DNA of 63,869 bases, filler included, from Deltaproteobacteria bacterium (lineage in GTDB: Bacteria > JACQOV01): the NCBI GenBank assembly GCA_016202395.1. It is 8 parts of 8 records of this genome, joined end to end, with 100 filler letters (N's around TTAATTAATTAA, not from the genome) between each part and the next. Parts side by side here need not be neighbours in the genome. Positions count along the whole stretch, not along the records: positions 1 to 6,531 come from JACQOV010000029.1; 7 more parts are not named here. One strand, 5' to 3'. The notes below the pieces were generated by a model. The model did not search any database, was not told where the DNA came from, and was given only the letters and a program-made list of their open reading frames with translations. Position numbers and translations under genes: made by a program. Within the stretch, counting starts at the first letter, position 1; every line of letters begins with the position of its first letter. This document shows, in pieces, positions 3,379 to 9,525 of this stretch.

Positions 3379-3966
3379 ATGGATCCCATTCAAACACTCG
3401 TTCAGGAACTGTGTAAACTCCCCGGCATCGGTGAGAAGACCGCCACGCGACTGGCTTTTCATATCCTCTATGCCTCGACCGACGAGGCGCTCGCTTTGGC
3501 TAAAGCGATTCAAGAGGTCAAAGAGCGGATTCGCCCTTGCTCCGTTTGTTTTAATCTTTCTTCTATCGACCCTTGCCCTATTTGTGCGGACATGCGGAGA
3601 GATCAGGATCTGATTTGTGTGGTTGAAGATTCAATCGGCTTGAATGCTGTTGAGCGAGCCGGAGTTTTTCGAGGAGTGTATCATGTGTTGTCGGGAGTGA
3701 TCGCTCCATTGGAAGGGATCGGGCCCGATCAGCTTAAAGTGAAAGAGCTCGTTGAGCGTGTACAGATGAAGCCTCCGCGGGAGGTCATTCTTTCCACCAA
3801 TCCCACGGTGGAAGGGGAGGCGACCAGCGCTTTTCTCTCCAAAATTTTAAAGCCCCATGTCCCGAAGATCACCCGAATCGCGCGCGGAGTCCCCAGTGGT
3901 TCGGATCTGGAATACGTCGATCGGATGACGCTCTCGAAGGCCTTCGAAAACCGCCGCGATTTCTGA
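3379..3966 (+). CDS. recR: Recombination mediator RecR
   Basis: LPGIGEKTA HhH, C4 zinc finger, Toprim NPTVEGEAT. Confidence 0.98.
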   Translation: MDPIQTLVQELCKLPGIGEKTATRLAFHILYASTDEALALAKAIQEVKERIRPCSVCFNLSSIDPCPICADMRRDQDLICVVEDSIGLNAVERAGVFRGVYHVLSGVIAPLEGIGPDQLKVKELVERVQMKPPREVILSTNPTVEGEATSAFLSKILKPHVPKITRIARGVPSGSDLEYVDRMTLSKAFENRRDF

Positions 3967-4061
3967 TCCTGCTAGGACTGGAGCCACTTTGCAAGAAATC
4001 CCATTTGTGATAGAACCTAAACTTATTCCCCGGTAGCTCAGTCGGCAGAGCGGGTGACTGT

Positions 4062-4611
4062 GGCCCGCGGAAGGAGCAAGACGTGGAGAAGAGAACCTAC
4101 GCCGATCGTCGGCTGAACATTATTGCGGCTGTTAGAAGACGTCGCAAAAAGGTTCGACAGATGGCTCTTGAGTACAAGGGCAATCGGTGTAGTCGTTGCG
4201 GGTATGATCGATGTGCTGAAGCGTTAGAGTTTCACCATTTAGATTCTTCCGAGAAAGACTTCGGGATTTCCGATAGAGGTTATACTCGAAGTTGGAGGAA
4301 AATTCGTGAAGAATTGGACAAATGCGTGTTAATCTGCGCGAATTGCCATCGTGAGCTCCATTCCAATACGCAGCATTCGTGGGAAACCATGAACGAAAAA
4401 TCGGGTGAAATCAGGGAAGCCGCAGCGCGTAATGGTGGCGGTAATCCTGAGCGAAGTCTGGCGAAACGCAACACCGTAGCCAGAAACGTGCAGAGACTAG
4501 GGTTTGAGGAGCGTTACCAATAAAAACCCACAAGCGCCCGACCTCTAATCCCGCTAATCGCAGGAAGAGGATGAGATAGTCCAGGCCTTAACGAAAGTTG
4601 AGGAGGTCCTG
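4062..4611 (+). mobile_element. Group I self-splicing intron in the tRNA-Asn anticodon (between positions 35 and 36)
   Basis: Exon ends in U that can pair U.G in P1; intron ends in G. P3 TCGGGTG(4401)/CGCCCGA(4535); P4 TCAGG/CCTGA; R element GCAGAGACTA; S element GAGATAGTCC; P7 GACTA/TAGTC; P9 CCTTAAC-GAAA-GTTGAGG. Confidence 0.92.
4083..4523 (+). CDS. Intron-encoded HNH (homing) endonuclease
   Basis: CxxC...LEFHH...CxxxCANCHRELH zinc-finger HNH signature; SD AAGGAG at 4071-4076; lies wholly inside the intron. Confidence 0.88.
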   Translation: MEKRTYADRRLNIIAAVRRRRKKVRQMALEYKGNRCSRCGYDRCAEALEFHHLDSSEKDFGISDRGYTRSWRKIREELDKCVLICANCHRELHSNTQHSWETMNEKSGEIREAAARNGGGNPERSLAKRNTVARNVQRLGFEERYQ

Positions 4612-4789
4612 TAATCACTAGGTCGCAGGTTCGAATCCTGCCCGGGGAGTTTTTGTTCCATGGCCCATCCGAAGCAAAATTGTTAAACCGATAGACTCTT
4701 GCATTTATCGCAAAGTAAGCTAAAGGGCTTAATTTTTACAACCTTTAGCTTATAAATAGGAGAAGAAGCTAATTTCCGAGACGTTTGCG

Positions 4790-5303: not shown

Positions 5304-5909
5304 TCACTTTTGAAGCGATCGATGCAGATCCATGAGAGGCCTAAAATTTTGATGATCTGCCTCCCGAAGAACTTTTAAATATTTTTGGCGTACCACTGAA
5401 GTATCCATTAAGCTTTTTTCTGGCCATTGAATCAGAGGTAGTTCGTTTTTCCTCAAGTGAATATTTGTAATCAAACGGGCCCATCGGCCATTTCCGTTTT
5501 CGAAGGGGTGAATCCACACGAGCCGATGATGTAGCCTCGCTGTAATTTCGTCCATAGCCATTTTCGATGCTATCCAATAGTGGTAATCTTTCTCTAACAT
5601 TTTTAAGGCTTCCGGAATTTGGGATTTATCGATGCCAATCGTTTTATTAGATTTCCGTATTTGGCCAGCCCAATTCCATACTTCTCTAAACATCTCTCGG
5701 TGCGTTTGTAAAAACCAAGAGTAATGAAAGGGGGCCATCTTCTCAGTAGGATGCCGAAGGAGATATTTTGTAATAGCCTTGTTGACGTTGGCAAATTCAA
5801 GAGCATTCAACTGCTCGCGTGAATGAACTTCTACCAACAGGCCAGAGGTATCGTCCAAAGGGGTTTTCCCTTGATTGGTATCGAACCTTCTTTGTTTCAA
5901 TCTTCCCAT
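5304..5909 (-). CDS. Fic-family protein (mobile mystery protein B-like)
   Basis: HPFENGNGRWAR Fic motif; N-terminal G.TPLDD...L...E..N; paired with an HTH gene. Confidence 0.88.
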   Translation of the reverse strand: MGRLKQRRFDTNQGKTPLDDTSGLLVEVHSREQLNALEFANVNKAITKYLLRHPTEKMAPFHYSWFLQTHREMFREVWNWAGQIRKSNKTIGIDKSQIPEALKMLEKDYHYWIASKMAMDEITARLHHRLVWIHPFENGNGRWARLITNIHLRKNELPLIQWPEKSLMDTSVVRQKYLKVLREADHQNFRPLMDLHRSLQK

Positions 5910-6349
5910 AGTAATGTTTTCTTTTTATCCATCAGTTCCTCTATCAAATCTTTAAGTTGTTGATGAGCGTAGAGATCCAAAGGCTCTTGCTCTTCGAGCG
6001 TTGCCGTTCCTTTCGACAAGGAGATAATCTGTTGTGCTTTTTCCTCTGCTCGTTTTTTTAGCAGTTTTATAATCGATTTTTTAGGGACAAAGCGCACGAT
6101 GAGATCACATTCCAAACCTTCAGCCGTTTTTTGAAGGGTAGAAAGACGAGGGTCCCCTTTTCCTGATTCAAGTCGACGAACCAGGCGTGGGCTCTGTGAA
6201 GCTCTTTTAGCCAGTTGAGCTTGAGTCATCCCCAGAATCGATCGAAGCGCCCGAATTTGAGCAGGATAATCTATTGATTTCTTTAGCCATTCTGGGAGAT
6301 GTTCCCGAGAGCGATAAACCTCGTCTGTAAAAAGATAATCCAGTTTCAT
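5897..6349 (-). CDS. XRE-type HTH protein (mobile mystery protein A-like)
   Basis: IRALR..LGMTQAQLA.R HTH, then A..L.C.L...FVP; start at 6349 inferred from promoter spacing. Confidence 0.82.
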   Translation of the reverse strand: MKLDYLFTDEVYRSREHLPEWLKKSIDYPAQIRALRSILGMTQAQLAKRASQSPRLVRRLESGKGDPRLSTLQKTAEGLECDLIVRFVPKKSIIKLLKKRAEEKAQQIISLSKGTATLEEQEPLDLYAHQQLKDLIEELMDKKKTLLWED

Positions 6350-6390
6350 AGGCTTATAATAGGACATATAATACCTATTGTCAACATAAA

Positions 6391-7902: not shown

Positions 7903-9525
7903 ATGTCCACCTCTTGGGAACAATTGATTGATAATTTTTTAAAAGAACGATGGGAGCAATCTCCCGTCCTTGCTACAGCAGAGGGGATTCACAACTACGA
8001 TCATCAACTGGATTCATTGAATCCAGAGGCCATTGAAGAGAGGCTTCAAACCGTTCGTCGTCAGATTCTTGCGCTTGAAAAGGCGCGGCCTGTCGATCCA
8101 GACGAACAGATCGATCGAGAGGCTGTGCTGGGGGAGTGCCGCTCTGAGCAGCTGGAGTTGGAGCGGATCCAGCCTTGGCGTTCAGACCCCTCCGTTGCCA
8201 TCAACATCGGTTTGCAGGCGATCTATCTTTTAAGAGTTCGGAGTTTTGCTCCGATGGAAGAACGCGCAGAGTCGATCCTCTCCCGTTTGGAACAGTTTCC
8301 TCGGCTCCTTCAGGAAGGGCAGGCCGCCCTCGACCGGCCTGTGCCTGTCTTTTTAAAAGTGGCGGAGGAGGTTCTTCAAGGGGCGAAGCATTTTTTGGAC
8401 GACACCGCTGAAGAGTTGGGGCGCCAGCTCCCTCATTTGCAGAAGATCTTTCGAACCACAACGGATCGTGTCGTCTCTGTCTTGAATCAATACGATCATT
8501 TTCTGAAAGCGGGTGTGCAGCCCGCCTCCAAGGATCGTTTTGCCATTGGCGTTGAGGCCTTCCAGGGACTTCTTCAACATCGTCATCATCTTTCGTTAAC
8601 GCCGGAAGAGCTTGTCCAGATTGGAGAAGAGACGGCAAAGGGGGTCGAGGGAGAGCTCGCTCGACTGGCCAAAGCGATTGAGCCGCGATCCACCTGGAAG
8701 AAAATCATTGCGAAATTTAAGCAGGAACATCCTTCATCCAAAGAATTGGTGGAGGTCTATCGAAAAGAGATGGAGCGGGCGCGGGATTTTTGTCGCGATC
8801 GAAATCTGATTAGCTTTCCGAAAGTGGAATCGCTCCAGATTGTTCCGACCCCTGAGTTTGAGCGGCCGACGAGCCCTTACGCTGCTCTGATGTCTCCAGC
8901 CCCTTTTGAAAAAGATCAAACCAGTTACTTCTACGTCACTCCTGTGGAGGACTCCATGAGCCCTGAGGAGCAGGAAGAGAGGCTTCAGGGGCATTCGTTC
9001 ACGGGGCTTCCGGTGACCGCTTTGCACGAGGCCTATCCCGGACATCATTTGCAGCTTACGGTTGCTAACCAGCTCCCTTCGCGCGTTCGTCGTGTGATTG
9101 GGACCTCGGTTTTGTGGGAAGGTTGGGCCCTTTACTGCGAGGAGATGATGTATGAAGAGGGTTTTTACGCCGATCCGCGAGTGAGGCTGTATCAACTGAA
9201 GGATCTTTTATGGCGAGCTTGCCGTGTGATGATCGATGTGGGGCTTCATACGCAGGGATGGAGCGTGGAGAGGGCGGTTCAACTTCTGGTCGATCGAGCG
9301 GCTCTGGAGCCGGCCAATGCGCGTTGCGAGGTGTGGCGTTATTGCGGCACACCGACACAGCCGATGAGTTATTTGATCGGTCGTCGAGAGATTCTGGCGC
9401 TCCGCGAAGAGGTTCGAAAAAAGGAAGGAAAGGATTTTTCGCTCAAACGTTTTCATGATCGGTTGCTTTCGTTCGGAAGTTTTTCTCCGGCGTTAACCCG
9501 AAAATATTGGAATAAATTATGTTAA
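7903..9525 (+). CDS. DUF885 family protein (putative metallopeptidase)
   Basis: HEAYPGHHLQ, EGWALY.E, P.Q..SY..G. Confidence 0.9.
   Translation: MSTSWEQLIDNFLKERWEQSPVLATAEGIHNYDHQLDSLNPEAIEERLQTVRRQILALEKARPVDPDEQIDREAVLGECRSEQLELERIQPWRSDPSVAINIGLQAIYLLRVRSFAPMEERAESILSRLEQFPRLLQEGQAALDRPVPVFLKVAEEVLQGAKHFLDDTAEELGRQLPHLQKIFRTTTDRVVSVLNQYDHFLKAGVQPASKDRFAIGVEAFQGLLQHRHHLSLTPEELVQIGEETAKGVEGELARLAKAIEPRSTWKKIIAKFKQEHPSSKELVEVYRKEMERARDFCRDRNLISFPKVESLQIVPTPEFERPTSPYAALMSPAPFEKDQTSYFYVTPVEDSMSPEEQEERLQGHSFTGLPVTALHEAYPGHHLQLTVANQLPSRVRRVIGTSVLWEGWALYCEEMMYEEGFYADPRVRLYQLKDLLWRACRVMIDVGLHTQGWSVERAVQLLVDRAALEPANARCEVWRYCGTPTQPMSYLIGRREILALREEVRKKEGKDFSLKRFHDRLLSFGSFSPALTRKYWNKLC

Follow-up and report, generated by a model that had tools for sequence, protein, structure and literature searches.

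A group I intron carrying an HNH endonuclease gene splits the anticodon of a tRNA-Asn(GUU) gene in a groundwater bacterium

I-Ssp6803I, from the tRNA-fMet group I intron of Synechocystis PCC 6803, provides a precedent for a tRNA-intron endonuclease (PMC1995217). Twenty-one intron-interrupted bacterial tRNA types have been described together with a U-1/omega-G rule, and introns longer than ~400 nt may hold genes (Williams 2020, bioRxiv 10.1101/2020.01.27.920355); the terms 'Asn', 'HNH' and 'endonuclease' are absent from the main text of that preprint, as distinct from its Table 1, Fig. 3 and supplements. The title of a second preprint announces a new intron site in tRNA genes of Patescibacteria (Nakagawa et al. 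2025, bioRxiv 10.1101/2025.07.03.662931, cited in PMC12641178). T4 SegB is a free-standing nuclease of a phage tRNA cluster that spreads tRNA genes (PMC2330249), and F-CphI is a free-standing nuclease encoded beside an ORF-less intron that blocks self-cleavage, an example of collaborative homing (PMC6083498). Free-standing and collaborative models are reviewed in PMC3943268 and PMC2988022; PMC11809585, in the part cited here, concerns rRNA introns only.

Here we describe a tRNA-Asn(GUU) gene in the draft genome of a groundwater bacterium that is split within the anticodon by an HNH-carrying group I intron, of the same class as the introns of Williams 2020. It differs from the I-Ssp6803I intron in its host gene (tRNA-Asn), its site (35/36) and a ribozyme with a P7 extension, and its nuclease is an HNH protein of ~100 aa, whereas I-Ssp6803I is a PD-(D/E)XK enzyme. 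SegB is a GIY-YIG nuclease recognising the T-arm (PMC2330249) and F-CphI targets psbA (PMC6083498), whereas the nuclease described here is of HNH type and linked to tRNA-Asn; unlike either, a single HNH family is found free-standing, adjacent to an intron and inside an intron at one tRNA gene. The intron class is known and the insertion site appears to be in print already, while the HNH family appears to be uncharacterised: a literature search returned neither an HNH in a tRNA-Asn intron nor a tRNA-Asn-linked phage HNH family, although subscription papers and preprint supplements may hold a description of either. We consider it highly probable that the element is a self-splicing, homing intron whose HNH protein targets intron-less tRNA-Asn genes.

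The window, by which we mean the whole stretch of 63,869 nt that was analysed, contains the following features of the locus.

4027..4061, + strand: tRNA-Asn(GUU) exon 1; its 3' end is U35 at the 5' splice site, and U35 pairs with G4370
4062..4611, + strand: group I intron of 550 nt at anticodon position 35/36; its last base is the omega-G, G4611
4071..4076, + strand: Shine-Dalgarno-like sequence 6 nt before the GTG start, of putative function
4083..4523, + strand: HNH endonuclease ORF of 146 aa with a GTG start, in the P1 loop (L1)
4369..4373, + strand: internal guide sequence, 3' strand of P1; pairs with 4058-4062 across the 300-nt ORF-bearing loop
4376..4393, + strand: P2 hairpin with a GAAA loop (covariation and pair check)
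4401-4407, + strand: P3 5' strand (RF00028, covariation and pair check)
4411-4489, + strand: P4-P5-P6-P6a domain (RF00028, covariation and pair check)
4493-4499, + strand: P7 5' strand with the guanosine-binding G (RF00028, covariation and pair check)
4500..4529, + strand: P7.1/P7.1a extension, an IA-type feature (pair check)
4535-4541, + strand: P3 3' strand (covariation and pair check)
4542-4570, + strand: P8 (covariation and pair check)
4577-4582, + strand: P7 3' strand (covariation and pair check)
4583-4610, + strand: P9.0 and P9 (covariation and pair check)
4612..4649, + strand: tRNA-Asn exon 2, U36 through the discriminator G; CCA is not encoded

The first-pass annotation had placed the tRNA halves 550 nt apart, with an insert that follows U35 and ends in G, and these boundaries proved exact (4062-4611). 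With introns allowed, ARAGORN finds a tRNA gene at 4027-4649 and calls the joined exons tRNA-Asn(gtt) with a normal cloverleaf, the reference used here for acceptor stem pairing. At default settings its output for 4027-4649 contains no tRNA, as expected from the earlier suggestion that standard annotation would lack this tRNA-Asn. An unbiased enumeration of U|...G junctions yields several ARAGORN-callable products among the rows listed; the proposed 35/36 junction, giving tRNA-Asn(GUU), is favoured because it retains a 5-bp anticodon stem and 7-nt loop and because it is conserved in relatives. The region 3700-4770 is also spanned, with zero differences, by a contig from another sample of the study, and the intron allele is thus not a misassembly. 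An intron-less allele in the same population was considered and rejected: the DNA-contig joints at 4061/4612 have short sides and a depth far above that of the host contig, and are therefore attributed to other community members. The contig of the tRNA-Asn gene also carries an Xre/MbcA-like plus RES gene pair (72-1209, + strand) and an HTH plus Fic gene pair (5304-6367, - strand).

Whether this is the only tRNA-Asn gene of the host had been raised as a check, and neither the 34 calls of uninterrupted tRNAs nor motif scans of the genome, which is 89% complete, revealed a second one; the host would therefore need splicing. A dead intron in a pseudogene, with a working tRNA-Asn lying in the unassembled 11% of a genome whose assembly lacks other tRNAs as well, seems to us extremely improbable, given that the core helices and the two splice-site bases are all intact, that the exons fold as a normal tRNA, and that the gene sits on contig C1 behind dnaX-ybaB-recR.

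The covariance-model check returned an Rfam RF00028 match at 4334-4603 (73.9 bits, E 3.2e-18, gathering threshold 50), and the proposed P3-P9 core with an extra stem between P7 and P3' held up when its pairs were checked one by one and in covariation among 53 relatives. The pair-by-pair check covered P1, P2, P3, P4, P5, P6, P6a, P7, P7.1/P7.1a, P8, P9.0 and P9, with a single failure at one P6a end pair. Both group I hallmarks are present, namely the U4061-G4370 pair in P1 and G4611 as the last intron base. The stem at 4500-4529 is of a kind typical of subgroup IA, to which the ribozyme may belong; among 75 classed relatives the P7-P3' region resembles this form in 16, has two hairpins in 43 and none in 12, with four unclassed. 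When 53 of the 76 intron cores are aligned with plain MAFFT, 94.3% of cells are paired and 36 of 48 pairs are changed on both sides; none of 500 shuffles scores as high, and slid structures are paired at 32–45%, a control over which the real structure has the advantage of having been derived from the same 53 sequences. In one relative (L074) both strands of P7, otherwise invariant, are altered, so that this guanosine-binding helix seems to have undergone a compensatory change.

P1 has only five pairs and closes over 300 nt. The guide GCAG is present in all 76 intron copies, 35–40 nt behind the last CxxC codons, where it is read in three different frames (47, 15 and 14 copies), which argues that it is kept as RNA; it occurs in none of 12 free-standing bacterial or metagenomic HNH copies. 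The first nucleotide of the intron can form a Watson-Crick pair with the one preceding the guide G in 62 of 76 copies (36.7 +/- 3.3 in shuffles), which supports the closing of P1 over the ORF, and ORF-less relatives have 6–9 nt at the ORF position, which identifies that position as L1. A longer P1 reaching into P2 could form in the window copy, but the required base is found in only 3 of 76 relatives, and this candidate was rejected. Nor does P1 extend at guide +4, since there is no covariation with tRNA position 31, which is always C. P10 is weak here and across relatives is not conserved in one register.

That the intron carries an HNH gene is supported by a match to the PHROGs HNH families at E 1e-28, while the Pfam HNH score of 19.6 bits is below the cut-off of 21.4. 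The conserved part of the ORF spans approximately aa 1-97, with a basic N-terminal helix, C36/C39/C85/C88, H51-H52, H89 and H93; across 85 sequences the four cysteines, H51 and H52 are invariant, and H89 and H93 are each conserved in at least 90%. The remaining tail, which is unconserved, continues through the ribozyme as far as a stop codon in the P7.1 region; measured from the 3' splice site, the stop of intact relatives lies anywhere between -221 and +10. In the same 85-sequence comparison Lys80 occupies the apparent position of an Asn that precedes strand 2 in many HNH nucleases, and the activity or mode of this protein may differ as a result. In an AlphaFold model (pLDDT 87) a beta-beta-alpha unit comes after a long basic helix; the best fold matches of the model are HNH domains, all of them weak (top Z 4.2, rmsd 3.3, 62 aligned); Foldseek returned no close solved relative at E <= 0.001, and a predicted homodimer scored 0.37 against a mark of 0.42. 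The protein search listed 1772 relatives, and the protein is often annotated as hypothetical or McrA-like.

Judged by dN/dS, with a median of 0.07 and a maximum of 0.33 in the 41 of 78 close pairs that have measurable dS (pairs involving the window copy are saturated and were left out), the HNH gene is under purifying selection among the relatives; an internal stop is present in two of 76 intron copies. Such strong selection, the very basic N-terminal helix and the need for a five-pair P1 to close over 300 nt could also be read as signs of a maturase, retained for closing the long-range P1 or folding the ribozyme and not as a DNA nuclease. We regard this as very unlikely, since 11 Nitrospira-family genomes have the intron without the ORF, the protein family occurs in phages without the intron, and the catalytic-type histidines are conserved.

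Expression signals fall into two kinds. In groups set by record title and tree, and for patterns picked after the data had been seen, a -10-like box lies 5–12 nt before the ATG in 37 of 47 CPR-like copies and in 0 of 29 others, and a Shine-Dalgarno-like sequence is present in 3 of 47 and 20 of 29 respectively. In the CPR-like copies (L049-L113) the extended -10-like box within the first 25–45 intron nt suggests an internal promoter and a leaderless nuclease mRNA. The window copy is of the second kind, and no internal sigma-70 promoter match was found on the + strand.

Among the best 80 of 103 genome loci with the HNH protein, 75 are the same intron at tRNA-Asn 35/36 (74 by script and one by eye), one is at a contig end and four are free-standing. 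For metagenomes, the best 80 of 574 loci comprise 55 inside the intron (54 by script and one misclassed), 12 more with exon 1 in which the locus is truncated or escapes the pattern, five just upstream and one downstream of an intron-bearing tRNA, two adjoining an intact tRNA-Asn, and five others. By record title the hosts include Nitrospirota, Omnitrophota, Bacteroidota, Acidobacteriota, Elusimicrobiota, Aminicenantes, Bipolaricaulota and many Patescibacteria. Titles can mislead: the flanking proteins of loci titled Bdellovibrionales (4), Methylomirabilota (1) and Gammaproteobacteria (2 of 5) are 64–96% identical to those of CPR loci, so these seven (L086, L090, L093, L106, L051, L113 and L073) are probably CPR, and the flanks of the three further Gammaproteobacteria-titled loci are uninformative. 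The first-pass annotation had treated an ORF-bearing intron outside the CPR as a rarity, which was an overstatement; among relatives of the HNH protein, bearing the ORF is the rule, in CPR and non-CPR phyla alike. The introns of Nakagawa and colleagues reportedly lie at 35/36 of tRNA-Asn and tRNA-Asp, self-splice in vitro and belong mostly to subgroup IA; the site is said to be rare outside Patescibacteria, and most tRNA introns to be without endonuclease genes. In contrast to introns of that description, the HNH-bearing form is common here and occurs in several non-CPR phyla.

The Nitrospira family contains all stages of the element. Of its 101 genomes, six have the full element, one has a part at a contig end, 11 have an ORF-less intron and 83 have no intron match, from which it follows that the ORF is dispensable for persistence of the intron and that empty targets are plentiful. 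Among fifteen regions inspected, including one (L152) viewed on the wrong strand, there are short loops, intact ORFs and two remnants. Alleles with the HNH gene, with an ORF-less intron and with no intron occur side by side in this sample, as a homing cycle predicts. One Nitrospira-family locus (L138, G130:C14:192800-195300) has a tandem duplication in which exon 1 with a truncated HNH is fused to other DNA, and 1.6 kb past the truncated copy there is a complete tRNA-Asn with an ORF-less intron.

The host had been described as outer-membrane-bearing, and BamA and LpxC genes are present in the bin, on contigs other than that of the intron. The HNH protein of the window is 70–78% identical to proteins of other phyla, and up to 76% to Nitrospira proteins, whereas RecR, encoded next to the locus, does not exceed 60% identity outside two close relatives; named RecR matches at 55–60% are mostly of Thermodesulfobacteriota type and do not place the host. 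Ribozyme cores from three phyla (Nitrospira, a Bipolaricaulis and a Deltaproteobacteria record) are 82–86% alike. These identities favour a past transfer between phyla and make the earlier proposal of cross-phylum homing plausible, if indirectly. A recent jump finds no such backing, and neither it nor a donor can be named, because synonymous sites are saturated between the window copy and its nine nearest relatives, the ribozyme core is only 69–76% like those of eight compared relatives, and the HNH tree clusters by phylum.

Matches were found in 435 phage records, the best being free-standing HNH genes 63–67% identical to the nuclease core, and tRNA-Asn is the annotated next neighbour in five of seven annotated phage regions inspected. 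A crude similarity filter reduced 105 viral loci to 69, of which 59 have a tRNA within 2 kb; in 41 of these 59 tRNA-Asn is the immediate neighbour. Asn accounts for 44 of 109 adjacent tRNA slots and 10 of 314 non-adjacent ones, a contrast that its Fisher p value overstates, in that the loci are best hits and kin are not independent. The phage neighbourhood provides independent support for tRNA-Asn as the target of the HNH family.

Most free-standing phage copies lie next to an intact tRNA-Asn that shares this anticodon loop and is apparently spared, so their target may be a site other than the point of insertion. The nuclease could be tied to tRNA-Asn through a site that the intron leaves unbroken, in the T-arm or a flanking gene, with the intron serving as a safe harbour and not as a shield; SegB likewise recognises a conserved T-stem-loop motif (PMC2330249). 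We judge this improbable, as all intron-borne copies occupy one site and free-standing copies recur beside 35/36 introns (L050, L105, L188, L256, L282, L288, L291, L313 and L315), an arrangement as in F-CphI (PMC6083498). In one of these (L188, viral) a phage-type HNH directly precedes a tRNA-Asn with an ORF-less 35/36 intron, and an IMG/VR contig (L175) carries the full intron and HNH element. Self-immunity of phages through tRNA-Asn positions 30-31, which are more varied there than in intron hosts, was considered and set aside because the comparison has no proper control. A Paceibacterota locus (L077:2995-3410) with a free-standing HNH directly upstream of an intact tRNA-Asn offers a natural test of self-immunity.

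A 76-column tree places 26 of 27 intron copies and four bacterial free copies in one branch (SH-aLRT 94), which includes three viral rows and is nested within viral diversity, and a phage origin of the intron-borne nuclease is suggested. The free-standing bacterial copies do not form one clade (AU p 1.6e-104); like the free-standing metagenomic ones, they are interspersed with copies inside introns. As far as trees of fewer than 100 columns with weak deep support can tell, the nuclease gene has entered or left the intron on more than one occasion.

Under the homing reading, the pre-tRNA would be transcribed through the intron, and the guide at 4369-4373 would pair with the end of exon 1 (U35-G4370). 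By analogy with its family, the ribozyme would then excise itself with a guanosine cofactor and restore tRNA-Asn(GUU). The L1 ORF could use a ribosome-binding site of its own for translation, either on the precursor or on the intron after excision, and the product, a small putative zinc-binding HNH nuclease, would cut or nick intron-less tRNA-Asn genes near the anticodon arm; repair of the cut gene would copy the intron in. The nuclease represents one arm of a tRNA-Asn-linked family whose other members stand free in phage tRNA clusters or next to ORF-less introns.

The 1.9-Mb host genome has three tRNA introns at three different positions. The second (L002, G000:C62:36977-37605, + strand) is a group I intron of 629 nt at 33/34 of an initiator-type tRNA-Met, with an ORF of the PD-(D/E)XK type (PF11645, E 4e-44) like I-Ssp6803I. 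The third (L003, G000:C76:10765-11059, - strand) is an ORF-less group I intron of 295 nt at 34/35 of the only tRNA-Arg(UCU) found, a tRNA that is not among the four classical types named in the text of Williams 2020. A second tRNA-Arg 3' half follows the intron's last bases at G000:C76 ~8380-8450 (- strand), 2.3 kb downstream of the gene, and could be the attR of a small island whose recombination took place within the intron end; just inside it are two small genes resembling a toxin-antitoxin pair.

The element is widespread, and the window copy itself adds a lineage and not a mechanism. It is conceivable, if rather doubtful, that the intron acts as armour, its insertion at 35/36 destroying the site of the free-standing nucleases of this family that phages widely carry and that would be aimed at tRNA-Asn genes. 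If so, those nucleases would otherwise cut an essential locus in a host with a single tRNA-Asn, and the host would gain even after loss of the ORF, which would account for the persistence of ORF-less copies and their retention by groundwater bacteria with small genomes; incoming phage tRNA-Asn genes could in addition be cut by the nuclease that the intron encodes. Because of the intron, default annotation misses an essential tRNA gene, and the HNH family would be a second, uncharacterised endonuclease family beside the tRNA-intron homing enzyme I-Ssp6803I. A nuclease of ~100 residues with what would be a long target is of structural interest, and, since its family occurs free-standing, next to an intron and within one, all at a single tRNA gene, the steps proposed for the assembly of a mobile intron become testable with one enzyme and one target.
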